DNA of 60,856 bases, filler included, from Collodictyon triciliatum (Eukaryota): NCBI GenBank assembly GCA_043381765.1. It is 5 parts of 5 records of this genome, joined end to end, with 100 filler letters (N's around TTAATTAATTAA, not from the genome) between each part and the next. Parts side by side here need not be neighbours in the genome. Positions count along the whole stretch, not along the records: positions 7,728 to 22,515 come from JBHJMP010001773.1; 4 more parts are not named here. One strand, 5' to 3'. Position 1 is the stretch's first letter; each line of letters starts with the position of its first letter. This document shows, one piece after another, positions 318 through 60,718 of this stretch. The notes beneath the pieces are model-generated. The model searched no databases, was not told where the DNA came from, and was given only the letters and a program-made list of their open reading frames with translations. The position numbers were made by a program, and so were the translations under genes.

Positions 318-3300
318 TTAATAACGCTGCGGTTCATCGTATGGACTCAAGGCTATTCCATAAATCGATTGCGAGCGTAGTTCTTCCCTGCGTTGTTTGC
401 CCGTGGCTGAGTGACTGCTCGCCGTCACCAAATCTCGTTGTCTTTGCTGAATAAACAAGTGGTGGAAGGGAATATCGACCCCGCTTATAGTCACCCCTGT
501 CAACCTGGATAGCAACGAATCAGGTATCTTCGATATTGGATTGTTGTTCAAATTGATGCTTTTAAGAGCAGTGAGTCTGGTGATATCCTCTGGTAGCTCT
601 GATATTTGATTAGATGAAATGTCTAAGCTGATTAAAAAAGCTTGCAGCAGCGCCAGCGAGTCGGGCAGTGATTCAAGTGACATACCTACCAGGTGCGCTG
701 TCGTCTGTTTCGTATTAAATAATTGCAAGATATTTTCCTCGACTTGACTCAATGGATTCATATCCAACGAAACATTTCTTAGTTTTGGTAGGTAAAATAG
801 TGAGGCCGGTATTTTTGAAAACATATTTGATGTCAGGGTGATTGATTGTAGATTGGTCAAAAGGGAACAACAGTCTGGTAAGTCCCAAAGCGCATTGTTT
901 GATAGGTCGATATGGCTTACTCTTGTTAATTGTAATATGTGGTGGTGCTCCAGGCGAGGGAGGCGGTTCTTTGTGTGAATAAACTCATCTGATTGTAGAC
1001 CTGTGCATAACTCTATACTTATATCAAGGCAAAATATCGGATTATCAGCAATATTTAGGTATGTCAACTCCTTCGTCTTTGGTAACCAAGCCGATGAAAA
1101 AGTCATCAACCTGTTTGATTGCAACGATAACTTGCGTAATGAACCCAAGTACGTGAACGTGGCTGGTAATGTACTGATCATATTCGAAGAAATACCCAAA
1201 TCTTCCAAGAACTTGATTGCCGAGATTCCTTCAGGAATTTCATCCAACAGGTTAAGTGATAAATCCAGCTTTTTTATAGTGGTAATCTCAAGCAAAGACT
1301 TTGGTAAGTTTTCCAATAAATTGTGAGACAGATTCACCACAAGTAATGACTGGAGCAACGAAAACGAAGAAGGTAGGCATCGAAGTAGGTTGTTGGACAA
1401 GTCAATCATTTTCATTTTTTCCCAGAATTCTGAGATGTATGGTATATGTGTGATGCGATTGTTATGCAAAGATAGGCATTCTACCTCGGAAAAACGATGC
1501 AACGTATGTGGGACACTACTCAAGTGTAAACTTTGAAAGCAAAAAATATTACAGTCTCTCTCTGCAGTTTTCATGCATTCTGAAAGAGTTATGTTGCTTT
1601 CTACATATCCTCGAATTTGCGTATCTTCAAGTGCTGCTGTCGAGTCAACGATAGTATCCATTCTCCAGTTGGGCCATGCCTTGAGAATGTCCATTTTCTC
1701 AAACAAACCTATATTCTCATCCGATGAAACAAGCCTATTTCCATACATCTCAACGGCACGGAGCTTGTTCATTTTGCCCATTGCAAATTTTGGGATACTT
1801 CTGAAATAATTGTAGCTAATAAAGAGCATTTCCAATCTTGTTGCATGACAAAGAGACTCTGGGAGCTCAGACACGTAGTTTTTTCGTATATTTAGAATTT
1901 TCAACTCTCCCAAATCAAACAACTCTTTTGGGATATTAACGAGAAAGTTTTTCTCCAGACTAAGAGAGCTCAAAAGTGTCCATTTCGCTACGGTGGGTGC
2001 TAAAATTCTTATTTTGTTGTCTTGTAAACTTAAAGATTGCAGCTTGACGAAAGGAATTTGTTCTTCCCATTCAGACTCTAGCCCAATATTATTCTTTGAT
2101 AGGTTTAAAGACTCAATATTGGTAAGAGTTGAAAATCCTATTGGTAAGCGGCTGATATAGTTGCTTGACAGATTCAAGCGCTTCATCCCGACACAATTAA
2201 GTATAGATTCAGGAATATCATAAATATGATGGCTTGAAAAATCGGCCATAACAAGTTGAGTCAAGATTCCGATGCCGTTGGGTATGGTCATGGGATAATT
2301 CAACTGAGGGATTTTCCATATGCTTTTCTTTTTTTCGTACATTTCCATCAAGTAGCGGTGTCCTGTTGATATTGGGTTGTTTTCAACTATAATTTGAATT
2401 CCAAATGAATTCGAGGCAAATTTGTCTGGGATATCGCTCAGCCGATTTTTGGTTGCATTAAGCATGGTAAGTTCTTTCATGAATGCAATAGATGAGGGAA
2501 TCGATGTTATCTCATTATGGGATACATTCAAATTATTTAGAGCTTGCATTTGTTCCCAATTATTTGGCAGCTCTGAAATTTTATTATGAGATATTGACAA
2601 AGTTACCAACGAAGTGTACCCCAGTATAGAACCAGGGAATAATTTGAATTTGTTTTGAGAAATGTTCAGATGCTTTAAGTAAGGCAAATTTACCGAATCA
2701 ATGGCAAAATCTTCTAATGAATTATGTTGAATGTTTAATACTTCCAAAACCGAAAATGATGTGGAGGAGAGGGTCTGGTGTAATACATTGATATTTCCAT
2801 GGGTGATGTGAAATTGCAATAAATTAGGTAGTTTAAGCATGAAGGAGAAATCTCCTATAATTGATTTCGAAATACTCAGGCACGTCAAATGGGATGGAAG
2901 CCAGTTCAAGTATGCAAACGACTCAGGAGGCGAAGCTATGTGATGTATAAATGAGCTTTCCATATTTAATATACACCTGGACACATTCAGTTCTATGCCA
3001 TCAAATAAGTTATTATTAATGCATAACATTTTCAAATTTGACATGGATGTTATTTCCGTAGGTAAGTGACGCAATTTATTATTGTCCAAATTCAAAAACT
3101 GCAGCTCTTTTAATAAATGTATTCCAGGAGGTAAAGCCCTGAGGATGTTGTCAGATAGGTTAAGTTTTAACAAATTAGTTAGATTCCATAAAGAACTGGA
3201 AATATCAACTAGATAGTTTCCAGACAAATTGAGACTGAGGAGATTTGTGAGACATGATATCTCTTCGGGTAGTACAACAACAGAACCTTGCACGTCGAGT

Positions 3301-4648
3301 CGCAGTAAATTTTGACACTCAAATATCTCTTTGGGGATGTAATCCTGATGACCGATGTCAACAACGAGAATCTTGATATTACTCGGAGACATTTTTGAAA
3401 ACACTTGACAGATGAGGATATCCAAGTTGGCATTTATTGCTCGCGGAGAATCACGAGACAGGAAATCATCTTTATAGAATAGTAGTCAGTTTTCTTTTTT
3501 TTCTTCAAAAATGAATTTATATTTTAAATGAATTTTGACTAGTTTTCAATAAGTTTAGTCCACTTACTAGAGCTGAACAATGGGATTTTAGGTCCACGCC
3601 AAAATGATATCAATTGTGATGAGAAATCATCAGATAAACTGGAAGCATTTTGTAGTTCTTGCGGTATGTGTGAAGGACTTCGGCCATAATCATCGTATAG
3701 GGGTGTATGAAAATCATGAAACGGGTTCTGTTTTGTTGTAGAATTTGGACAGTGGTATAAAATAAAATTATCATGTGATTTTGTGGGCACTTTCCCAATT
3801 ATAAGCGACATTATATCGATGTTATCTTGAATTAGAGGTTTTTCTACACCCAAAGAATGGTCTTGATTGCTTTCTGGGTTGTGTGCAGATGTTTCTATGC
3901 CATCGTATCCATTATCATAACCATCATAGTCATAGTCATCATAGCCGTCATCATCGTCATCATTGTAATCATTATGACTGTCATAATTGTAATATCCGCC
4001 ATGATACCCACCTCGATACCCACCACGATATCCACCACGATATCCACCACGATATCCACCACGATATCCACCTCGGGGCCCTCTGAGTGCCCCGCGAAAT
4101 TCACTTTCAAGCCTGTATTCACGCGGTTTGATATGACCCGATTGAATAAAACAGTTGTAATTGATTGACAGTTCACTGGTCAATTTCAAAAATTCTTCTT
4201 GATTTGTGTCTCTGTCAACGTCCATATAAACCTGATTAGGGTTACTATGATGACCAAAGGAATCAAGGTAACTTCGACCGATATAGTTGGCCTCAGCCTG
4301 ATAAGGAGCCCCACCAAATCGGAACGATTCGGGATAGTGCACGGATGTTTGAGATTTTTTCCTGAGGAATGAAATTCTTGCTACTGTCATGGTTTCACTG
4401 CGCCTGGAGGATGACCCGTGATAAGGAGATGCGTCTTCCGATGACTCCGGGGTCTCCGGGATGGGCACTTTGTCGCGTACCCTTCCAAAAGTAATGATGT
4501 GATGTGCCTCACTGAAACTGTTCCAATGGTGATGCGCCCAGTCGCGTGAAATAAACATTGTGCTTTTCTTATCCACGGAGAAATCTGCAGAGAAAAAGTG
4601 AGTGTCATTTAGTTTCTCAGACTGCCCTAACGCTCCTTTTGACGTCAT
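318..4648 (-). CDS. Large leucine-rich-repeat protein (~1410 aa) with an RGG/acidic low-complexity N-terminus; 2 exons (4648-3568, 3469-318)
   Basis: ORF 318-3425 consists of dozens of LxxLxLxxNxL repeats. ORF 3539-4648 joins it in frame through a GTAAGT...CTGAC...AAAG intron at 3567-3470 (FSS-N-DFLSRDSPRAINANLDILIC). Confidence 0.85.
3990..4076 (-). repeat. Coding 12-bp tandem repeat encoding (RGGY)n
   Basis: CCACCACGATAT units on +; translation RGGYRGGYRGGYRGGYRGGYRGGYHGGYY. Confidence 0.9.
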
Positions 4649-5412: not shown

Positions 5413-5635
<223 letters not shown>

Positions 5636-5695
5636 CGAGCAAGTTGCTAAGCAGCCGATCGTATTGAATACTTTTACTCGATAGCGGGGGAAGAA

Positions 5696-7627: not shown

Positions 7628-7727
7628 NNNNNNNNNNNNNNNNNNNNNNNNNNNNNNNNNNNNNNNNNNNNTTAATTAATTAANNNNNNNNNNNNNNNNN
7701 NNNNNNNNNNNNNNNNNNNNNNNNNNN
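7628..7727. other. Artificial scaffold linker
   Basis: N44-TTAATTAATTAA-N44 (stops in all six frames); identical at four places. Confidence 0.97.
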
Positions 7728-7839: not shown

Positions 7840-8523
7840 CAAAATTATAAAGGATATTGGCAATCTTAGAGGCAGAAAATACGGCGAGATGGCTTTCAAC
7901 AGGTGTATCAGAATAGTCATGCCCCTGTAAGTCCAGATGAAATCCGATAGCTTTCCACTATTATCTGGATTGACGAAAGCAGGAGCTTTGATGAATCCAA
8001 GAAACAACCTGAATGATATAATAGTATGATTAGCAATATACTAAGTTTAAAAAACTTAATAATAATCATTCTATTCCTATAATCAATTTATATTTTTTTC
8101 GTTTATGTAATATTATTTCAAAAATGACAAATAAGCCCTTGCCTTGTCCCAGACAGAACCCACCCTATTAACCTGCCACCAAACATGCATTTCAAAAAAG
8201 CACACTATCCACACTTGCGGCGGTAATCATGTTGTTTGAGGCCGATATGTTGACTTTCGGTCGCAATGGCTATACGGCCGTCCTTTCGAACCCGCCGAAT
8301 CAGCTCTCAGCGTTTTGTCTCAAATCACTTATAAAAAACTTTATGTGTTTGTTTGCCACAATGCGCATATTATGAAAGCCTCGGTAGGTGCTTAATTTTA
8401 CCTGAATTGATTTTATGCAGTTTTTTTCTTTTTTTATTATTAAATTGACTAATTGATTAATGTTTTATTAAAATTGAAACTTCGGTAGTTTTCTAAAGGA
8501 AATAGTAAAACCAAGACTTTCAG

Positions 8524-10400
8524 ATGAATAAAAGAAAACGCCTTGAGTCTGAGAATCTGAAGTCTGTAAAACCAGACTATCGAAATCTGAAAACATCTCA
8601 AAAGTCGATTGTAAAGAATCCGGATGACTATGACAAAATCAACGATACGGTTTTATTGTGTCATAATTTGGTTACCGACACTTATCTGTTTGTAAGATGT
8701 TGCATATTGAAATCACAACAACACCCAACAATCGATGAAAAGTTTTTGTACGCTTTAAAGACAGTCGGGGTTGTTTCACAAGATAGAACCACAAGTTTTT
8801 TTTAAAACATCCAGATGAGTTAAGATATGATGAATTTTTATCTCAATGATTTTCGATTCCTTTTGTCCCAAGAAGAACGCTTTCCGTTGTTTGGATTGTC
8901 TCATATATTATGGTACCTGGCGAAGCAAATGTTAACAGCTTATCATAATAACACCAAGGACATTTTGTAAAGAGGCTACTGCGCTTTATAAATCAAACAG
9001 TTCCTAAATATGAGAGTATTACGAAAGTTATTAAAAAGGCAGACTTACAGAATTTTAAAAAAAAAAGCCATCTTCATGAAACCCGAAATACCGGAACAAT
9101 ATAAAGGATGGGCTGCAATACATTTGCATCATATCATTCCCAGCGATATTGTAAATGGTATCGAATATGACATCAAAGTCAATACAAATAAGTATATTCC
9201 ATGTATGATTCACATGAATCGCATTTTTTGAGGGCATTGGAACCAAACCGTTTCAACCATTCTCTATAAGAACTAACAATACACCATGCCATATTAGCCT
9301 AGATGCTGCATGCTTGATAGATCTATTAGTATTATCTGGAAAAACAAAATTATTGGATAATATATCAAGATGCAAAGAGACCCTATGGGATAAGTTCTTT
9401 GAAATGAAGAAGAGGGTCTTTCATCAAAGAGTCTACAATTTTAAATACATGATACAAACAGACAGCTTGGCGGTGTCATTATTGTTTGAAGAGAATGGGT
9501 TTTCAAATTCAAAATTCAAATATGATCAAAAACAAAGAATATGTCTATATAGATGAGTTTTCCGAAGAGCAGCTATCTTTGTTAGGGATAATAATAACAG
9601 TTGGAGTGGACGCAGGCAAGTTTAATTCGGTTTACATGGTGGATGAGACAGGCAAGAAATTACGTTGCACGGCACACCAAAGAAGACATGATAGCAAATC
9701 TCTTGAAAATCACAAAATACTCTTGCGCGAGAAAGAAAAGTGCAATCCTTTTCGGATACGCATGGCGACAGATTTACAAATTGTTGTTTCTTTTGGTCCC
9801 AAAACTTTTGAAGAGAATCAGCAGTTTGAGACATTAAGAATATCTTTAATCGATTTAGAGACACAACTGAAACGTAATTCATGCACGGTCGATTATGAAA
9901 AATTTCGGGGATATGTATCTATGAAATCAAGATACCACATAGTATTTTCCGGATTTTATGAACACGTAACTTTTCGTAAGATGAAATGGAGACAGTATGT
10001 TAATACAAAAAGAAGTGAACAATTGTTTATGGACCGAATCGAAAAGACATTTGGCAAGGATGTTGTACTGGCGTATGGAGACTAGAGCAGAAAATCTCCG
10101 ATGAAACATTTTATGCCAACAAATGGAAGAGGATTACGAAAAATATTATCCAAACGTTTTGAAACAGTTAGTGTAGATGAATTTAGAACCTCCAAGATGT
10201 GATGCAACTGCGAAAAAGAGCTGGAATATGTAGCACTGAAAGGAAATACAAAAAAGTATATATGTCTCATATGTAAAGAATGCAATCGCTCAGAAAGCAA
10301 AGAAACTGTATTCTTGACAAGGGACTTAGCAGCACTAATAATATACTCAAGAAAATTCTTTAATCCTTCAAAATATTCATACACCTTCCTCTTTTAAAAA
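8524..10400 (+). pseudogene. Fanzor1: Fanzor1 (TnpB-like RNA-guided RuvC endonuclease), disrupted by frameshifts and stops
   Basis: Motifs: YMIQTDSLAVSLLF; RuvC-I VGVDAG (Asp 9609-9611); YGD[W>TAG]S; RuvC-II VDEFRTSK (Glu 10179-10181, the rearranged position typical of Fanzor); zinc finger CNC...CKEC; RuvC-III TRD (Asp 10323-10325). Confidence 0.9.
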
Positions 10401-10404
10401 GAAA

Positions 10405-10495
10405 AAGGCTGTTAGGTCTTTCCCTGGCAGCCTTCACCACTACACAACCTTTGTGAAAAAAGTGGTGAGGCCTTGGATACTGGCGACCAGGTTTA
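10405..10495 (+). ncRNA. Putative omegaRNA scaffold of Fanzor copy 1
   Basis: Three adjacent hairpins at the ORF 3' end: 10407-10416/10423-10432; 10434-10441/10461-10468 with inner CACAA/TTGTG; 10469-10476/10487-10493. Conserved in copy 2. Confidence 0.65.
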
Positions 10496-11094
10496 ACGAA
10501 TCGAAAGATGGTATACTCCTAGTAAATAAAACAGATGACAACAAATTAGGGCAATCTTGTTTTGCAAACAAATGAAGCGTGTAGGATATCCCTCCTGTGA
10601 CAAGCCCTTCCAGTTTTCCGTGTCTTTTATCTCAGATACATATTGTCCAATCCTTATGCGATGGATAATGTAGCCACCTTGCATAAGCCAACAAGTATAG
10701 CCAAAAAAATAAATAAAGATTTAACTTTCAAAAGTCATGGGCTGATTGGTAAACATGAGGAGGCAGACAGAAAAACATTTACAAGCCTGTAGGCTACAGA
10801 TACATGAGTTTTCTCGAAGTAGATTGATAAAGATTTTTACACATGGTCGATGATGTTTATAGGAAGTTTGGGGATTGGGTATGGCCAGAAATTGAAACTC
10901 AGGATAAAAAAATGGACGCAAGGAACGGGAGATAAGCAAAATGCGTGCTAGTATTTCAGCTCAGGAAGTGACCCAACTCGATGAAAGTTAGGTTGGTTGG
11001 GGCCAGGTGGATGTGTGAACTCAGGTGATAAAATGAATGGAGCGGATGGCGATGCGGGAGGAGACTGTCATGAGACGGTTTCCAAAGTCGAGCC

Positions 11095-12366
<1,272 letters not shown>

Positions 12367-20532: not shown

Positions 20533-20630
<98 letters not shown>

Positions 20631-22340
20631 GTAATAATAATAAATGAAAATAGAACTTATCACGGAATATAGAAATAAGTAACGAAAGATAATTAGACAG
20701 GATAGGAACGGCGAATCAAATTAATGCCATCATGAGAGCACCCGTTATATAAGTATCTTCATTCGAACCTGCAACGGCAAATCCTTGGATAATTTCGTCC
20801 GACGCAATACCGATTATGTGAATCCCAACAACCTTCTCCTCAGGCCCGATACAGACAACCTATATGAGAGTCAATTAGTAGCGCATTCTTAATAGTAATT
20901 TGTCAATATGATGGGTGCACTTTCTGTAATCATGGTACGCATTGACAGTGACCTTGTAGAACGTCTTTGTCTTGCGCTCGGTCATGGAGTGGTACATGTT
21001 TGTAAAGTTTGTCTTGTAAATGCGAACAGCTTCGCGTCCGAACCGAGTGACTGCTTCTGCCTCAGATATTCCAACAGTCCCGATGGGTGGATGGCTTTGT
21101 GGTGTTCAAATTAAACAATAATTGTACTCGCTTATATGGCGGAAACTCAGTAAGAAGCCATACTAAACGATAAAAATCCGCAACTTTCTTCATTCCTTTA
21201 TTTTATCCCCTTTGAATCACGTATGTATATTTCCTATTCAGAAAAAAAAAGATAAAAGAATTACCTGAAAATAACGGTAGGGATGTTTTCGTAGCTGAGT
21301 TTCAAGCCTGCTTTGCCGTTAAACAGTCGGTCGACGAGGCGGCGACCTGCGGCTATCGCGACCGGGGTCAGTTCAACCCTCCCAGTAACATCACCAACTG
21401 CATACAGATTCTTTACGCTGTAATAAATATTTACAGGTCAATTCGGGCAGATGGTGTGTTCCAATTGGAATAAACAGAGATGAATGCAGTCAATTTATTT
21501 CAAGGCAGTATCATTTGAATATATCATGTAGAAGAAATGACATTTTCATGGACAATCATCAAACCTAGTTTCTTGCCATTCGTCTGTGACGATGTACCCC
21601 CTTTCGTTAACCTTTGCACCTGCCTTGTCCAGGTCGATGTTGTCCGAGTTTGGGCTTCTACCGATTGCCCAGATTACCTTCTCAAAGGCTTATTTGAAAA
21701 GGTATGGAATAATATTCATGAGATACCATCGCTTTTTTTCTTTGGAGGATGGGAGGTACATCCCTGGTCGCACGCCATCGAAATTAACATTGAGAATAGT
21801 ACGATATCATCTCGCAAAAATAATGTAAACGGAATATGTACCTCCTATGGCTCCGCTAGCAGACTCCAGCACGATGGAACCTTCCTCTGTGCGACGAGCA
21901 GCCGAGACGACGGTATTTTGGACTATGGTAATGCCACTATGTTTCATCTAGAATCAGATAATTAAAAGAAGATCAGGACCAATGATGGGGGTGCTTTTTT
22001 TATACGTTGAGGTATTCTTAATACCTCGTCCATTAAGACGTTGATCACATCTTCTTCAAAGTTGCGGAGAGCTCGCTCGTGTCGGATAATAAGCGAAACC
22101 TGTCCGACATAGGTAAGTAATGTAAAAATATATGAAGATGAAGAGATAATATGCTGATATTCAATATGAAATGCACCCAAACATTAAATGATGGGAGTTA
22201 TGTATGTGTTGGATTATATCAGAGTGAGATAGACATGGGTAAATTGGGCAGCTAATTTACCTTGCTTCCAAGAGATTGAAGGATTCCGGCCATTTCAACA
22301 GCGATATATCCAGCACCAACGACAGCCACACTTTTTGGGA
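20367..22340 (-). CDS. GSR: Glutathione-disulfide reductase, 5'-partial (cut by scaffold end)
   Basis: [80 protein letters not shown]...[13 protein letters not shown]. Confidence 0.93.
20534..20643. repeat. (AAT)n microsatellite in a GSR intron
   Basis: Seen directly. Confidence 0.95.
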
Positions 22341-22515: not shown

Positions 22516-22615
22516 NNNNNNNNNNNNNNNNNNNNNNNNNNNNNNNNNNNNNNNNNNNNTTAATTAATTAANNNNNNNNNNNNNNNNNNNNNNNNNNNNN
22601 NNNNNNNNNNNNNNN
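22516..22615. other. Artificial scaffold linker
   Basis: N44-TTAATTAATTAA-N44. Confidence 0.97.
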
Positions 22616-32600: not shown

Positions 32601-35423
32601 GAGGGGGATGGGCCATGATATGGTATGAGAATATGAATAAGAAAAAAAAAGAAAAAGGCGTAATCCTCTTTTAATAGGATATATTTGGATTTTCTCCAAC
32701 CTGACGGCACATGTTCGCTGCTGTCACTGCTGCTGTACGCTGTACACTGATTGGAAAGAAGTCGATAAATGTCAAACACGCTGCAAGTCCTCCACTTTTC
32801 AGGACTACTTGAGGGTGGTCGATGGATATTTTTTCAATTGCCTGATATAAAATTTCATGATAAGAGATTTACTAAAAACATATATGTAAGATATAAATTG
32901 TGGGTGGATTTCTATTGATGAATAAATTGTGTATTAAACCTGAAGAGACTGCTCAGCGAGGTCGATGTATTCCACATTCATCAGTTTTGAGCATAATACA
33001 GGCGTTGCGCCATAGTTGACCACAATACTTGCAGATGTAGGCACCAATTCCATAAAAGTGGTCAGAGTTCTTGCGGCGATGACTTTAATAAATTAAGGGA
33101 AATATGATATTTGTAATATTCATAGGGCATATGATTGATTTTTTAATGACACTTTCTTTTAAATAAGAAAAGTGTAGATTAATACTTGGATTTATGAATT
33201 AATTTTTGCTATTTTTTCATTATGCGGTGAAACATTAGAAATTATATAATTTGGAATCAGGCTGGTAAAAAAGAAAAAAAGAAGGTAATATTCAACCATA
33301 AAACTGCATGTGAACTCTTTTATGCTCAATATTTTTGAAAAGGATACGCATGGTATTTGGATCTCCATCAGTACTCAGTATATTCACAATGGGAGGTATG
33401 AATATTTCTGGATTGAAAAACATAACACTTTCATCTGGCGACATTGCCATTATACTAGACATTTCAGTCAAAGCCTGGAGTTGTGCCGCACCATCTCCAT
33501 CAGAATGAAGCCCGTGTAGAATTCGAGAAATGGATATGCCTTAAAAAAAAAAAGGGAAAGGATTTAGCAATAGGATGTTTCGTGTATGCAGTATGCTAAA
33601 ATTATAACATTTTTTATAAAATAATAATCATAATCATAATCATAATCATAATCATAATCATAATCATAATCATAATCATAATCATAATCATAATCATAAT
33701 CATAATCATAATCATAAACATAAACATAATCATAAACATAAACATAAACATAAACATAAACATAAACATAAACATAATCATAATCATAATCATAATCATA
33801 ATCATAATCATAATCATAATCATAATCATAATCATAATCATAATCATAATCATAATCATAATCATAATCATAATCATAATCATAATAATCACAATCATAA
33901 TTATAATAATAATAATAATAATAAAGAGGTAAACATATATATCACCTGCATGGGACGGGCCGGATAAGTCCAGCCCATTCCCTATTCGTCGAATGGCTCC
34001 ATTTATTGCCATTGAATGGTGAGCACGTCTTTGCATCCTCGTGGCAAATATTTCGTCTTCGTCTGTGTCGTCGTCGCTAAACGTGTCTCTTCTAATAATA
34101 TTCAAATTTAATCTTCAGGACAAATCTTCCTTGAATTTTGTGGCACCGTACCATATTTCGATTACAAAGAGATTTGACGAAAAGAGTGTACATTCATTTT
34201 CTCTTTGTTCTGAATAAGATATCCATTGAATAAATTATCCATTCAACGTTAATTATTGGTTTCTACCTGCGCCCTGACATTTCTGTGTTTACTTCTAGTC
34301 CAATTGATGAAGAAATATATACCGGTAAATCAAAACCAAGTCCTAATCGGTGATGACTAAGACAGTTTTAGAAAATCGGCTAAAGAATGCATATGAAATG
34401 AATTATCATTTCTCTGTTGCTTCCCTATGTAACCGAATTATTTACTTACAACAGTGATTCAGCAGAACTTGGATCGAGTTGCCAAGGTCGAGGGCTGAAT
34501 TTGAAAAGAGTCATTATGGTTTATATATAGATAGAGCGAGAAAGAAAGAGAGGGAAAGGGGAACTGAATCAAATGCATATAATACAAAAATCATTGGGTT
34601 GCATGCAAAATTCGAATATTCATTCGAGATAAAGTCACATCCAAGTGGTAAGTTGAGTATTACATCGAGCTTCTGTCAAACAAAGAATGGATTTGTCGGT
34701 TGAAAGAGTGCCTATGGAAATCAGTTGTGTGGGTTTCTGGTCTGGTAGAATGGTGTTCAGAGGCACTGTCGAAAGCACTGAAATGGGTATCCCGCTTGTG
34801 TGAAAGGATTGAATTTTGTCGGTCCGGATTAATATCCCTGTCTTTCTCTCTGCTAGATCGTCTCTTTGATGGAGTGGGAGTTGAATTGGGGGATACGGTC
34901 GAGATCGAAGCTGGTGTCGTTCTGCGACTGCGAGGTTTCTTTGGAGTGCTTTCCTCTTTTTCTTTTGGATGATATCAAACATGATTATGAACGGAGACAC
35001 GTCTTTTATTTCATAGCACCCGCGTAAATAAACCTTTTATACGGTATAGTCCTTATGATATAGACAATCTTAAATAATGTAGTTTGTGTTACCAGATTTA
35101 CCGCCCCTGGTTGATGATTCTAGGCCGGATACAGGAATATGAGTCGCAGAGTTTCCTCTCTTTTCTGGCCTCTTTTCTGGCCTCTTTTCTGGTGAAGTTA
35201 GTGGTACAGACTCGTCTTTTTTGCTGGACTCGGCAAATACTTGACTCTTTCGGCGGGTCCTGGTGCTGATTGTGCCCGGCGGGTTAAGCGCTTCCTCAGT
35301 TGTACTTTTTGGATCTTCTGACGTATTTAATGTTTTTGAATGGCTTGTGTCTGATGAGCGATTTCGGCTGCGAAGATTCCTTTGTTCCATAAGGCAGAGC
35401 CTGTTGAAAGTATTGTTATTCAT
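23668..35423 (-). CDS. TRIP12: HECT E3 ubiquitin ligase of the TRIP12/UPL3/Ufd4 type (ARM repeats plus HECT), many exons
   Basis: [103 protein letters not shown] (catalytic Cys), EGQGNFLLS*. Start codon uncertain (35423 or 35390). Confidence 0.9.
27566..27670. repeat. (GTTT)n microsatellite, intronic
   Basis: Seen directly. Confidence 0.95.
33083..33347 (-). other. U12-type (minor) GT-AG intron in the TRIP12-like gene
   Basis: Donor GTATCCTTTT; branch site TCCCTTAAT ~9 nt before AG; splicing gives DPNTM|LIAARTLT in frame. Confidence 0.85.
33621..33923. repeat. Compound (ATAATC)n/(ATAAAC)n microsatellite, intronic
   Basis: Seen directly. Confidence 0.95.
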
Positions 35424-37393: not shown

Positions 37394-37493
37394 NNNNNNN
37401 NNNNNNNNNNNNNNNNNNNNNNNNNNNNNNNNNNNNNTTAATTAATTAANNNNNNNNNNNNNNNNNNNNNNNNNNNNNNNNNNNNNNNNNNNN
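37394..37493. other. Artificial scaffold linker
   Basis: N44-TTAATTAATTAA-N44. Confidence 0.97.
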
Positions 37494-45500: not shown

Positions 45501-45739
45501 CCTCAAATTCCTTGCTTTTTTTTTTTTAATGCAAACAAGGCATGCAGTACCCTCACATCTGATAAAATAAAATATATATAAAAAATAGTTATCAATAGAA
45601 AGTTAATGACATTGTCCATGAAAGCGCAACGAAGACACACAACGACAGAATATACTTATTTCGTGCTATTATCACCATATTATTTCTATAATGTGGAATT
45701 TATTGGATTTATGATATATGTATTATTTACTAGAAGGGG

Positions 45740-45830
45740 TAAACCTGGTCGCAAGTATCCAAGGTCTCGCCACTTTTTTCACAAAGATTGTGCAGTGGTG
45801 AAGGCTGCCAGGAAAGACCCAACAACATGT
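45740..45830 (-). ncRNA. Putative omegaRNA scaffold of Fanzor copy 2
   Basis: Same three hairpins as copy 1; substitutions in stem 1 give G-U pairs. Confidence 0.6.
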
Positions 45831-47714
45831 TTTTTAGAGGAAGGTGTATGCATTTTTTGAAGGATTAAAGGAACTTTGTTGAGTATATTATTAGCGCTGT
45901 TAGAGTCCCTTGTCGAAAATACACTTTGTTTGCTTTCTGAGCGATTGCATTCTTTACACATGAGACATCTATACACTTTTTTTTTGAATTTCCTTTACGG
46001 TTTCATATATTCCAGTTCTTATTCGCAGTTGTAGCACACCTTGAAGGTTCTAAATTCATTTAAAATAAACGTTTCAACGTTTGGATAGTTTTTTTTCGTA
46101 ATCCTCTTCCGATTGTTGGCATAAAATGTTTCATCGGAGATTTTCTGCTCCAGTCTCCATACGCCAGTACAACATCCTTGCCAATTATCTTTTCGATGCT
46201 GTCCATAAACAATTGTTCACTTCTTTTTGTGTTAACATACTGCCTCCATCTCACCTTTCGAAAAGTTACTTATTCATAAAATCCGGAAAGTTCTAACCGG
46301 AATCTTGATTTCATAGATACATCCGAAACTATTCATAATCGACCGTGCATGAATTATATTTACTCAATTCTGTCTCTAAATCGATTAAATATGCTCTTAA
46401 TGTCTCAAACTGCCGATTCTCTTCAAAAGTCCTGAAACCAAAAGAAATAGCACTTTGTAAACATGTTGCCATGCATATCCCTGAAGCATTGTACTTTTTT
46501 TTTCTCGCGCAAGAGTATTTTGTGATTTTTAAGAGGTTTGCTATCATGTCTTATTTGATGTGTCGTGTAACGTAATTTCTTACCTGCCTCATCCACCATG
46601 TAAACCAAATCAAACTTGCTTGCATCCACTCCAACTATTTTTTTGTCGCTAATAAAGATAACTGCTCTTCGGTAAGTTCATCTATATAGACATATTCTTG
46701 GTTTTTTTGATTATATTTGGATTTCGAATTTGAAATACCTTTCTTTTCAAACAATAATGACACCGCCAAGTCGTCTGTTTGTATCATGTATTTAAAATTG
46801 TAGTCTCTTTGATGAAAGACCCTCTTCTTCATTTCAAAGAAATTATCTCATAGTCTCTTTGCATCCTGACATATTATTATTTAATATTGTTTCTCCAGAT
46901 AAAAAATACAAATCTATCAAACGTGCAGCATCCAGAGTAATATGACATGGTATATTGTTAGTTCTTATAGAGACTGGTTGAAACTGTTTGGCTCCAATGT
47001 CCTCAAAAATGCAATTCATGTAAATCAGACATGGAATGTACTTATTTGGATTGACTTTGACGACATATTCGATAGCTTTTACAATATCGCTGGGAATCAT
47101 ATAATGCAAATGTGTTGTAGCCCATTCTTTATATTGTTCCGGTATTTCGAGATTCTTAAGATGGCCTTTTTTTAACTTTCGTAACTCTACCTTTTTAATA
47201 GCTTCCGTAATATTCTCGTCTTTAGGAACTGTTTGGTTTATAAAGTACACTAACCTCTTTACAAAATGCTCCTTAATGTTATTATGATAAGCTGTGAAGA
47301 TTTGCTTCGCCAAGTATGGTAATACATGACACAGCCTAACCAACGGAAAGCGTTCATATCGGGACTAAAGGAATCGAAAATCATTGAGATAAAAAGTCAT
47401 CATGTCTTCACTCATATCTGGTTTTTTTTTTTTAATCTTGTGTGTCTATCTTGTGAAATTATTCCGAATGTCTTTAAAGCGTACAAAAAAAAACCATTTC
47501 ATCGATTGTTGGGAGCTGTTGTGATTTCAATATGTAACATCCTGCTAACAGATAAGTGTCGGTAACCGAATTATGACACAATAAACCCGTATCGTTGATT
47601 GTGTTATAGTCATCCGCATTCTTTACAATCGACTTTAGGGATGCTTTCACATTTTGATAGTCTGATTTTACAGACTTTATATTCTCAGACTCAAGACGTT
47701 TTTTTTTTTTTCAT
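45779..47714 (-). pseudogene. Fanzor1: Fanzor1, disrupted
   Basis: YLAKQIFTAYHNNIKEHFVKRL, YMIQTDDLAVSLLF, IVGVDASKF (RuvC-I), YGDWSRKSPMKHFMPT, NEFRT (RuvC-II), CYNC...CKEC, TRDSNSANNIL (RuvC-III). Confidence 0.9.
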
Positions 47715-48242
47715 ATGGAGTCTTTGTTTTACTTTTTCCTTTGAAAACTACCGAGTTTTCAATTTTAATAAAACTTAAGGCAATCAGTCAATTTAATTTA
47801 AAAAAACTGCGCAAAATCAATATATGTAAAACTAAGCATCTACCAAGACTCTCAAAATGTGCACATTGTGGCAAACAAACACACACAAAGTTTTTTACAA
47901 GTGATTTGAGACAAAACGCTAAGAGCCGATTTGGCGAGTTTGAAAGGATGGCCTTATAGCCATGGCGACAGAAAGTCAAGATATCGGCCCCAAACAACAT
48001 GATTACCGCCGCAAGTGTGGATAGTATGCTTTTTTGGAATGCATGTTTGACGGCAGGTTTATAGCGCGGGTTCTTTCTGAGTCAAGGCAAGGACTTGCTT
48101 TCCATTCTTTAATTTTAATGATAATGTCACAAAATGGAAAATAAAATATAAATTGATTATAGGAATAGAATGATATTATAAAGTATTTTTAGCCTTATTA
48201 TACATACTAGTTATACTATTATATTATTCAGGTTGTTTAATA

Positions 48243-52278: not shown

Positions 52279-52378
52279 NNNNNNNNNNNNNNNNNNNNNN
52301 NNNNNNNNNNNNNNNNNNNNNNTTAATTAATTAANNNNNNNNNNNNNNNNNNNNNNNNNNNNNNNNNNNNNNNNNNNN
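52279..52378. other. Artificial scaffold linker
   Basis: N44-TTAATTAATTAA-N44. Confidence 0.97.
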
Positions 52379-55430: not shown

Positions 55431-55524
<94 letters not shown>

Positions 55525-57740
55525 GAAAAATAAAATCAAGATGAAAAATTATGGACCAGAGTCTAGTTCAATAAGTCTTTGTGTAAATACATACACATGC
55601 TTTGTGGCCTTGTTGGCGGGCATTTTCTGAAAAATGTAGAAGGGTTGTGAATGCTATCTAATGACGAAGAGAAGAATGTCATAAGTAATGTTTTTGCAAT
55701 CATTGCAATCATGCTTTTCTCAATAGAGAATATATTTCAATTCCGTTATCTTTTAGCTATTTGTTTCCGTATATACAGTCTATGAAAAAAATACACTTAA
55801 AAGCACGCACATTTGAGCATCATATAATACATACGCGCAAAATTCTAGAATGGATTCGTTTTTCTCGTCTACATGCTTCTTCACGACCCTTTTGAAGCAA
55901 GAGCTCATTTTTTTGTCTTCTATCTTCATCCAGCCGTCTTTTCTTTTGCTCCTCTTCTTCTTGGCTGTAAGGACGAGAAAAATTGTTCGATATTCAAAAT
56001 ATGTCTAATACTCACAAACTCTCCAATAACTCAAAAAAATGTCATCTCGGAACACCATTTATCTAACAATATTGTTAGTGGCATATTCTAGTTGTTAATA
56101 AAAAAAATATATAATATAGTGATAGGTGCACATGCAATAATACATTTTGAGTCTTGCTAGGCGTAATCTCTCTGTTTCTTTTCTGATTTCCTCTTGAGCA
56201 GCAAGAAGCAAAGCGGCTTCCTCCTTTTTATTTTGGCAAATATACAGGTGAAAAACATTATTATTTTTTTCCAGGAATTATACATTGGGTACACTGATAG
56301 CCTTACGTTTTCTTTAAATAAATGGGGTGTTCAGGTAATAAGATGTATTTCATCCATATTTTTCTGGTCGCAAGCCGAGACAACGTGTACATATTAGGGT
56401 CATACCCGTGCGCGAGCGATATCTTCTAGAGCATCAATTTCCTCTTGTAGTGCTTTTTTCTCCAATTCAAGTAGTTCTTTTCTGACATAAAATAATAAAA
56501 TTTAGACATTCAATTCTGAAATGATATGTGTTCTTTGACTGTATCAATAATCCAAATAGGTTCATGCTGTATCAGAAGACAAGGAATATCATATTCGGTG
56601 AATTCCAACTATTAATATTGATATCCATTCATAAGAAAATGTCGTAGTTGAAACTGCATCGATCGATAAAAGAAAACTGTTCATAAGCCTTTCTCTTTTC
56701 TTCCTCTTTCAATCGTCTTAAATCTTGCTCTTTTCTAAGCTGGATCAACCGATTTTCTTCCATTTGCTGCTCTCGGTGCATTCTCTTCTGCCTAACAGCT
56801 TCTTGTCGCTGCTCCATAGCCACACGTGGGTCATAGTCTAGCGGGACTTTAATTCTATCATGAATCTACCATAAAATATCGTCAATAAAGTAAGTGACAG
56901 AGGTTCGCATTTATAAGTATATGGAAACATAACGATAAAAATAAAAATAAAAATAAAATAAAACTGAATTAAAATAAGATAAAATAAAAATATAATTAGA
57001 ATGACAATGAGAACACGAACACAAATTCGAATAAGGGTAGTCAGATGGATTACTTGAGAGTTATGTGGGAGGTCTTTGGGCACCGTCACTTTTCGATTAA
57101 AGAATTTACGGGCGGCGTCCGATCTAAAATAGATTCAAAGTAGAAAAAGAAGGTATGCAATAAAAGAAATGAACAGAATATTATATTGAATTTTACGGTG
57201 GTGATCTCTATTAGATGGATACAAAACAATTTGAAAATGTGTAATTATAATAACGAACAAATAAAAAATCATAATTTAGTTTCAAGTTTTACTTCCAATA
57301 CAACAACAGACAAAAAAAAATTGACGAGAAACGAAAATAGAACATTACTTCCATTCATGATCCAAACTGATGGGTGCTTTGCTCTTTTCATTCAACTTTT
57401 CCACCCAACTCTTCAGAATGGACTTTGCTGTACATAATTACATAAATAAATAAAATAAAATAACAATCATAATCATAATCACCGATGGAAAAATCATGGG
57501 GAAACGCATTTCCAAAACTCAAATAGAAACGTGTTTTTGTTTGAAATTAATACCTTCTGATTGGTTATGTGGGTCAAGGTCACTGTCATCACTATTATTA
57601 CCCTCATCAAATGATTGGCGTTTAGCCCAATTCTCTGATAGATCAGATTCTTCTTCAGGTAAACTCCAAGGATAAATTTTTACATTCTTACCACCATCAT
57701 CCTTTGAAGCATCTTCCCTCACCAAATGTTCAAAAACACC
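52819..57740 (-). CDS. CCDC191: Coiled-coil domain-containing protein 191-like (Sfi1-like W-repeats), 5'-partial
   Basis: DPRVAMEQRQEAVR, periodic 'WxxW' repeats (SFHGWL, RSWIKWI, SCWMKWK, MFSIWK), C-terminus ERENRRQQLRLKVKSFLPDY. Confidence 0.72.
53111..53205. repeat. (ACTC)n microsatellite, intronic
   Basis: Seen directly. Confidence 0.95.
55431..55523. repeat. (AAT)n microsatellite, intronic
   Basis: Seen directly. Confidence 0.95.
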
Positions 57741-58878: not shown

Positions 58879-59966
58879 AGGACATCATCTGAACCCAATG
58901 TCTAATGAGAAGCTCAAGCCGTTTATTGCTCGAGCGAGAGGAACATTACTTATAACAACGTGTTTTTTCATCCTTGCAATCGATTTTCCATTAACACCAA
59001 GAATTCATGCAAAATGTGAAACTTACGGAAAATCACTGGTAATGACACCAAGTTAGAAACAAAATACCATGAAATATGTAAGAGCAATAAAAGTAAAATA
59101 AAAGGATCTGAAATATACACCTTTAAGCCCTGTTCACTCATAATGAACCATTCTATCTAAACTAAGCAGCTAGGAATCTCTCTTTGCAATTTTTTAAATG
59201 ACTTGAATTTCATTTCAGATGGATGTGGGAGTAGGATTATTCGTCACATCGAATGGAATTGTTGATCGACGAGAGGATTATGCCAAGAATGCGGAATCGT
59301 TGGTTCAAAGAATCGTTGGGTCGGTGCGTTCCTCTGCGGTTTTAATACTTCTCGGATTTATTCGATTGCTTTCAATTAAATCAATTAATTACCAAGTATG
59401 TTTGTAATTTCATTATTTCGTTGATTGTGAAACATGTTGCATATTTATTCATAATTATGAAAAACAGAAATTTTATTGAATTTAGAATCTAATGGATGTT
59501 ACTAAGCCTATATATTTTTGCCATATCAACATTTCATACATCAGGAACATGTATCTGAGTATGGAGTACATTGGAACTTTTTCTTTACTCTCGCCTTGTT
59601 GAATTTGTATTCATCCTCTACTCGAACAAAACCGTCATATGCTGGCATCTTCGGCGTTCTGCTAATTGTTGGTAGGCAAGATATATTTTTCGAGAATTAT
59701 GGTGATTTTCTTAATGATTTTTAAAAGAATTATTATTGTTATTGTAATAAGAATAATAATAAGAATAAGAATAATAATAAGAATAATAATAAGAAGAATA
59801 ATAAGAAGAATAATAAGAAGAATAATAAGAAGAATAATAAGAAGAATAATAAGAAGAATAATAAGAAGAATAATAAGAAGAATAATAAGAATAATAATAA
59901 GAATAATAAGAATAATAATAAGAATAATAAGAATAATAATAAGAATAAGAATAATAATAAGAATAA

Positions 59967-60024
<58 letters not shown>

Positions 60025-60718
60025 GAAAATAATAATGAAAATTCATCCAGCACTCATTAATTCGATCTATCCCCACTTTAGTGCACCAGATATTATTGAG
60101 CTCTGGATTATCTGACTATGTTGCAACATCGAAGCGTGACAACATCTTTTCAATGAATAAGGAAGGAATTGTCTCACTTACAGGTTCTGCTATTATTTCT
60201 TTATTACATTTTCCTCTTTCATTAATAATTGTAGCACTCTTATCACAAAGCATTGTACTGAATGACGACAGCCATGACCCTCTTTGGGTTAACTTAGGTT
60301 ATATCGGACTTTATGAACTATCGGTTTTTTTCGGGTCCAAATTTCGCCAAAGACACCCGCCTACAAGCTATGCTTCCTTCCTGGCCCAGATGATAGGAAT
60401 TGGACTATCATTCTTTTTTGTGGCTGTACTCATTGAATCATATGTTGAGCCTGTTTCAAGGAAAACGGTTTAATTACATTCTTGAAAATGAAATTCTATC
60501 GTAATTAATGACTTTGTTAGGATATTTTGCATCCATCTCATGGAATTACAGTCTCAACCATACAAATATAATAGATGAATGCTCCTTACGTTTGTGCGAT
60601 ACTATGCTTCCAAATAATACAGCTTTCAATGAACGCACTGGATGACTTATTCGTGCCCCGTAAAAATGAAAGTGTGATACCTTTGTTGGGCAGAAACCAG
60701 TTGGTTCTATTTCTTTTG
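58879..60718 (+). CDS. PIGW: GPI inositol acyltransferase PIG-W/GWT1, partial at both ends
   Basis: ILAIDFP...[61 protein letters not shown]. Confidence 0.93.
59746..60023. repeat. Compound (AAT/AAG) microsatellite in a PIGW intron
   Basis: Seen directly. Confidence 0.93.

Follow-up and report, generated by a model that had tools for sequence, protein, structure and literature searches.

Fanzor1 proteins are characterized by the motif D-X(125,275)-[TS][TS]-X-X-C4 zinc finger-X(5,50)-RD, as given in the available text of Bao and Jurka 2013 (PMC3627910). In the case of SpuFz1, a region of approximately 80 nt from the stop codon to the right repeat gives the guide-RNA scaffold, the conserved scaffold stops where the element does, and the guide begins immediately thereafter (Saito 2023, PMC10432273, in the portion available). 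The elements CRe-1, CRe-2 and CRe-3 carry a conserved RNA within their 3' untranslated region (Bao and Jurka 2013; Jiang 2023, PMC10530073; available portions). Helitron2 elements are described as having asymmetric terminal inverted repeats (ATIRs) of 8-15 bp together with a 5' hairpin (Bao and Jurka 2013; Craig 2023), and the defining features of Helitrons used below were taken from the available parts of these two sources. Terminal inverted repeats are lacking in the Mucor Fanzor1 families MCi-5 (ATTTAT) and MCi-2, which have sequence-specific short flanking repeats according to section 12 of Bao and Jurka 2013, as far as that text is available. A pentanucleotide common to both termini is reported for CryptonS in the accessible part of a review (PMC13565253). 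The end of a Fanzor element decides what the guide RNA reads and, hence, what the nuclease would cut. To our knowledge, the mobilizing enzyme and the true termini of Fanzor1 families without inverted repeats are still unknown.

The window analyzed here (the whole stretch of DNA under study, 60,856 nt) is of eukaryotic origin. It has a G + C content of 36% and contains numerous microsatellites and host genes, including CFAP20, a leucine-rich-repeat protein and GWT1. It is made up of five parts of one genome, separated by filler at 7628-7727, 22516-22615, 37394-37493 and 52279-52378 (a spacing of ~14.9 kb), with each filler consisting of 44 N, TTAATTAATTAA and another 44 N and resembling a linker with stops in all six frames. 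Copy 1 of the repeat described below starts 275 nt inside its part, and copies 1 and 2 lie in separate parts, so that their genomic distance and relative orientation are not readable from window positions. Exons of the flagellar protein CFAP20 (10959-11468 and 11713-11901, both on the minus strand) converge on the right end of copy 1, which sits a few hundred bases past the CFAP20 stop codon. The leucine-rich-repeat open frame comprises 1055 codons (321-3485, minus strand). Long trinucleotide microsatellite arrays, alike across parts, occur at 5415-5636, 20534-20643, 33620-33924, 55431-55533 and 59745-60042.

A Fanzor1 gene in two broken copies

When the window was compared with itself by BLAST, one long pair was obtained, in which 8002-10495 matches 48238-45740 with 85.0% identity over 2532 alignment columns. 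A tblastn search with the full-length relative P0003 likewise found only two Fanzor copies in the window. Both are approximately 2.5 kb long, and the identity between them is even, at 86%, 86%, 87%, 87%, 90% and 90% across six consecutive segments. On the basis of self-BLAST and alignment, copy 1 is a decayed, non-autonomous Fanzor1 repeat unit at 8002-10536 on the plus strand, its right limit being the end of a block shared with the other copy. Copy 2, in which the Fanzor1 gene is broken as well, occupies 45716-48238 on the minus strand. The best explanation of both loci is that they are dead, non-autonomous Fanzor1 copies without terminal inverted repeats.

Three-frame translation, tblastn and matches to PDB entries place the broken coding region of copy 1, of ~620 codons, at 8524-10394 on the plus strand. 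It is disrupted by frame shifts, by a TAG (10083-10085) and by a TGA (10200-10202), and its stop codon lies at 10392-10394. By three-frame translation and tblastn, an intact open reading frame is absent from both copies, each of which has frame shifts and stops. A query (P0001) was made from the 302 C-terminal residues of copy 1, with two stops read as X. Among solved Fanzor1 structures, it matched PpFz1 from Parasitella (E 9.5e-10), SpuFz1 from Spizellomyces (E 2.3e-6) and GtFz1 from Guillardia (E 4.9e-5), and it retrieved 1647 relatives at E <= 0.001 from a representative protein library. The Cas12f1-like_TNB domain was matched by 8 of 10 full-length relatives at E <= 0.01, one of which exceeds the Pfam cut-off. 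P0003 aligned with SpuFz1 (8gkh) over its whole length (E 9e-37), and in tblastn its residues 2-582 cover copy 1 at 8530-10328. With the breaks read as X, the Fanzor1 motif is present as VGVDAG, DEFRTSK, CxxC...CxxC and TRD; the codon for the first zinc-finger cysteine is TGA in copy 1 and Cys in copy 2. The predicted protein is thus a Fanzor1 by homology to solved Fanzor1 proteins.

The nearest full-length protein, P0157, is 62% identical to the window protein and comes from a 2.6-kb metagenome contig. The P0003 group is 45-52% identical and occurs in giant-virus contigs, where loci encode proteins 80-88% identical to P0003. Since the P0003 group sits in IS630/Tc1-mariner-type elements, we place the window protein, by sequence relationship, in the SpuFz1-like, mariner-associated branch; its own element would have lost such ends or never had them.

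Relatives of the element were also found in sequencing runs, for which the run search gave small shares only (0.05-0.07). In four of these runs (X1-X4), 9, 24, 150 and 81 short contigs, respectively, are 80-99% like 7997-10518. Position 10084 is a G, giving a Trp codon, in 19 of 19 covering metagenome contigs (5 from X2, 11 from X3 and 3 from X4), which makes the TAG stop private to copy 1. Freshwater and subsurface metagenome contigs agree together against copy 1 at this position and at 39 other places listed. The element family is abundant, and possibly intact, in related organisms of those samples.

Two scans with short probes gave matches that were rejected as chance: a conserved-hairpin 19-mer hit four metagenome loci that share only 19-23 nt with the element, and a right-end 20-mer hit one bacterial coding region in prokaryote genomes. 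In viral contigs there were 0 matches for the right-end pattern, and neither P0001 nor P0157 had a relative there. A search for proteins predicted in other frames that span the right end, which would have revealed the tails of other copies, yielded no candidates.

The junction behind the folded region

The ~100 nt behind the stop codon (10395-10495, plus strand) are predicted to fold into hairpins at 10406-10433 and 10434-10468, followed by a short stem, CCTTGG...CCAGG, directly before TTTA. RNA folding of 10395-10536 in copy 1 gave -40.5 kcal/mol (z -3.39; equalled by 1 of 200 shuffles). The fold of copy 2 is weaker (z -0.42), and 86 of 96 positions in the folded region are identical between the copies. 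An Rfam search returned no match below E 0.67. Judged by its fold and by the identity of the copies, the region resembles the SpuFz1 scaffold and is a candidate guide-RNA (omega RNA) scaffold.

Immediately behind this region the two copies differ. In copy 1 (plus strand), CCAGGTTTA at 10487-10495 is followed by 23 nt at 10496-10518 and then by CTAGTAAATAAAACAGAT at 10519-10536. In copy 2 (minus strand), CCAGGTTTA at 45748-45740 is followed by CCCCTT at 45739-45734 and CTAGTAAATAATACATAT at 45733-45716. CTAGTAAATAAAACAGAT and CTAGTAAATAATACATAT agree at 16 of 18 positions. Reading both strands therefore confirmed the copy sequences reported in the initial annotation, along with the unlike segment of 23 or 6 nt and the match that resumes behind it. 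The best local alignment of the 150-nt stretches past GGTTTA joins 10516-10536 to 45736-45716 with 18 of 21 positions identical. This alignment leaves 20 nt unlike in copy 1 (10496-10515, the 23-nt segment minus CTC) against CCC in copy 2 (45739-45737), a length difference of 17 nt that we read as an indel. The shared tail block of copy 1, CTCCTAGTAAATAAAACAGAT (10516-10536, plus strand), holds AATAAA at 10525-10530 and AAACA at 10529-10533.

Identity within the block is 86%, compared with 86-90% for the element segments, and past 10536 it is 30 of 63 aligned positions (48%), which is the noise level. Because the block shares the identity of the element, it behaves as a piece of the repeat unit of the same age and not as host DNA. 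In the window, the block pattern occurs without mismatch at these two places only, with one more occurrence at three mismatches; 0.47 matches are expected, and 0 of 100 shuffles gave three. With 45-nt flanks, 4 of 4000 random window pairs scored 27 or more, as did 0 of 4000 pairings of flank 1 with random sequence and 3 of 4000 such pairings of flank 2; with 150-nt flanks, the same score control gave 30, 15 and 0 of 4000, respectively. The match thus exceeds chance (random rates of roughly 0.001 to 0.008) but is not overwhelming, because both flanks are AT-rich and it was noticed after the fact. Such rates leave some room for a chance resemblance of two AT-rich flanks. They are nevertheless low; in each copy the block sits close to the junction (within 3-20 nt), and it is as similar between the copies as the element itself. 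We consider a chance origin highly improbable. These comparisons support the conclusion that homology of the copies does not stop at GGTTTA and that the unlike segment lies between two shared blocks.

In the sequencing runs, 10519-10615 is uncovered by contigs of X2, X3 and X4. This gap carries no weight, since local alignments would in any case break off at the unlike segment; among the 24 of 182 loose ends listed, none lay at ~10495. One X1 contig, identical to copy 1, reaches 10524.

The reading that we favor, and to which we give about an even chance, is that the repeat unit runs to ~10533-10536 and that the so-called variable segment reflects an indel within an unstructured tail that follows the folded, guide-RNA-like region. 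The repeat unit would extend past CCAGGTTTA through a short, AT-rich tail and would end at ~45719-45716 in copy 2. The variable segment would then consist of a 17-nt insertion or deletion plus two or three substitutions within that tail, whichever copy is taken to have the ancestral length. The true terminus would be situated ~40 nt past GGTTTA. In copy 1, the tail would carry the poly(A)-signal-like AATAAA, and it would end in AAACA, the pentanucleotide with which the element also begins on the left. A guide, if one was ever used, would be found beyond the tail end, as in other Fanzor1 elements. The CCC of copy 2 counts against an indel, as it fits copy 1 at 1 of 3 positions at best where 85% identity would be expected. 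A tail of 24-41 nt without structure between the folded region and the terminus would also depart from the SpuFz1 layout. The indel reading draws on the sequences of two copies only.

The initial annotation had offered a different account, in which the segment between the scaffold and a fixed terminal block is a guide inside the element that is exchanged between copies. The segment does directly follow the predicted scaffold, and the 20-23 nt found in copy 1 are a typical guide length. Copy 2, however, has only 3-6 nt at this position, which is too short for a guide, and both copies are dead genes. The annotation had also proposed to search for the variable segments; the 23-mer was run, and it matched nowhere else in the window with up to three mismatches allowed and had 0 exact matches in viral contigs, which leaves the supposed guide without a target in either. 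In the available literature on Fanzor and Helitron, no description was found of a guide held between two fixed blocks. The pair is 15% diverged and its alignment also has indels of 5-9 nt elsewhere, which makes a 17-nt indel simpler than a guide cassette. We know of no mechanism for exchanging an internal guide. Nothing positive speaks for the exchangeable cassette, and we regard it as the least probable of all the explanations considered. Templated filler insertion was also tried as a source of the 23-mer and was rejected: it shares 10 nt with 10035-10044, a length equalled by 608 of 1500 random 23-mers and by 528 of 1500 shuffles.

Ends of the element

Terminal inverted repeats were absent from the longest 25 of 98 inverted pairs, from alignments of the right end against 670-860 nt of the left side, from a focused test of the termini, and from positions further out in the left flanks. 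An asymmetric repeat between AAAC..CCTG on the left and CCAGGTTTA on the right was rejected, as it comes down to a match of 6 nt, which 891 of 2000 and 1047 of 2000 shuffles also attained. A transposase-like domain, the RepHel type included, was found in none of the 24 open frames scanned among 106 long open frames of the window.

A TSD scan of both copies covered duplications of 4-12 nt at 26 left by 51 right boundary positions. At the sole candidate situated at both similarity limits (8002-8006 and 10529-10533), copy 1 reads AAACA/AAACA and copy 2 reads AAACA/ATACA; the other hit of the scan was an internal AATGA/AATAA. On the left, similarity begins exactly at AAACA (8002-8006, plus strand), with G or T as the preceding base, and the pentanucleotide there could represent a target motif or a direct repeat of the termini. 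From the presence of AAACA at both limits, we infer a short direct repeat as the boundary of the element, which may be a duplicated or recombined target motif. The repeat is short, A-rich and seen in two copies, and is therefore a lead only; the probability of a chance coincidence at both limits is roughly estimated at a few percent.

The break between the copies falls exactly at the end of the folded region, which would also be expected of a true element end at GGTT(TA). According to this canonical Fanzor layout, the element would end as ...CCAGGTT(TA), and all that follows would be host DNA serving as guide. The similar flanks would come from target preference or from RNA-guided choice of look-alike sites, and 17 nt would have been gained in copy 1. 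The point at which the folded 3' region stops, ~100 nt from the stop codon, is comparable to the 80-nt region described in the available text on SpuFz1; GGTT is followed by TA in both copies, and TA also stands before AACAACC in copy 2; and the closest intact relatives, among those with DNA examined, are IS630/Tc1-mariner-type elements. On the other hand, there are no inverted repeats at all, copy 1 has GA and not TA on the left, and the offsets of the shared block differ (20 vs 3 nt), so that an additional insertion is still needed. The block also has the identity of the element itself, and no other copy of it occurs in the 60 kb. We consider an end at GGTT(TA) unlikely. That a guide is carried inside the element between scaffold and terminal block, or that the right flanks record an RNA-guided choice of look-alike sites, is very improbable as a whole. 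If it were true, this Fanzor family would link its guide to its landing site in a manner undescribed for TnpB or Fanzor.

The annotation had also hypothesized that a Helitron-type element ends at CTAG (10522) and that both copies integrated at A^T in a similar site, AAACAA^TAAATAAWACAKAT, which would imply sequence-preferred insertion. Several features are compatible with such an end. CTAG is followed by T in both copies (CTAG at 10519-10522 and 45733-45730), which fits the 3' CTRR of Helitrons, and there is neither a TIR nor a TSD. Where a Helitron1 hairpin would lie ~10-12 nt upstream of the 3' end, the CCTTGG..CCAGG stem, interrupted and of 5 bp, ends 10 nt before CTAG in copy 2, compared with 27 nt in copy 1. 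The statement that Fanzor1 is known as Helitron cargo is borne out by Helitron2 in Chlamydomonas, in the available portions of Bao and Jurka 2013 (PMC3627910) and Jiang 2023 (PMC10530073). Other parts of a Helitron end were, for the most part, not recovered. The left end that the copies share is AAACAACCTGAAT, which shows no TC at the limit or close to it and no 5' T, and there is no ATIR, the best left/right match being the 6 nt noted above. Folding predicts a 5' hairpin for copy 1 but not for copy 2 (z -2.99 vs 0.49), and the DNA of the 3' end folds no better than shuffles (z -0.64 and -0.65), which leaves no convincing hairpin. Helitron1 copies, inserted between A and T of varied sites, would be expected to diverge straight after the terminus; the identity of 12 of 14 positions past CTAG is at the level of the element itself and would demand an unusually strict target. 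The 24 of 106 long open frames scanned gave no RepHel-type domain, and the exact empty-site motif is missing from the window, where three matches with one mismatch were found against 0.79 expected. With only the 3' CTAG and its T present among the Helitron features tested, a Helitron end at CTAG is quite improbable.

The element among described Fanzor1 families

The favored reading, in which the unit continues through a tail to ~10533-10536, can be set against four kinds of described elements. The first is SPu-1/SpuFz1 of Spizellomyces punctatus (available parts of PMC3627910 and PMC10432273), which, like the element described here, has a single Fanzor1 gene, a length of ~2.1-2.5 kb and a homologous protein. 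SPu-1 has inverted repeats of 30-33 bp and TA duplications, whereas inverted repeats are absent here. The SPu-1 guide starts right after the conserved region, whereas a shared tail stands behind the folded region in the present pair.

The second kind consists of the IS630/Tc1-mariner-type Fanzor1 elements of giant viruses (L006 and L008; PGv-1-like), which are the closest among intact relatives with DNA examined. They differ in their length of 3.3 kb, in their inverted repeats of 32-33 bp, in having a DDE_3 transposase gene, and in having the right repeat within 20 nt of the stop codon. The two elements (L006, 1637-4952; L008, 1630-4952) each have the DDE_3 gene on the minus strand and an intact Fanzor1 gene of 634 aa. 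The loci L007, L008 and L009 are identical over their common length though they come from three different contigs.

The third kind is represented by CRe-1, CRe-2 and CRe-3, the Helitron2 elements of Chlamydomonas (Bao and Jurka 2013; PMC10530073; available portions). As is the case here, they are non-autonomous and have no classic inverted repeats. They differ in that their terminal inverted repeats are asymmetric, that each end bears a hairpin, and that they have duplications of variable length (7-19 bp); none of these features was found in the present element.

At present, the result amounts to a minor point in the annotation of two dead copies, and its weight would grow only with a cassette that truly varies, between fixed blocks, among many copies. 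The pair would illustrate that the limit of a folded RNA need not equal the limit of the element, and it offers AAACA as a candidate target motif. Five motifs of the element are absent from three text supplements of Bao and Jurka 2013, a search in which line-split motifs would be missed.

The fourth kind comprises MCi-5, MCi-2 and CryptonS, which, in the available descriptions, have no inverted repeats and carry, in all copies, one short sequence repeated at the two ends (ATTTAT, ATAATTNNNN and TATGG), to be compared with AAACA here. They differ in carrying remnants of Harbinger or Crypton genes, of which none were seen here, and the AAACA repeat is drawn from two copies only. By analogy, the simplest account is that the element would group with the Fanzor1 families that lack terminal inverted repeats and have the same short sequence at both ends, as MCi-5 and MCi-2 do.
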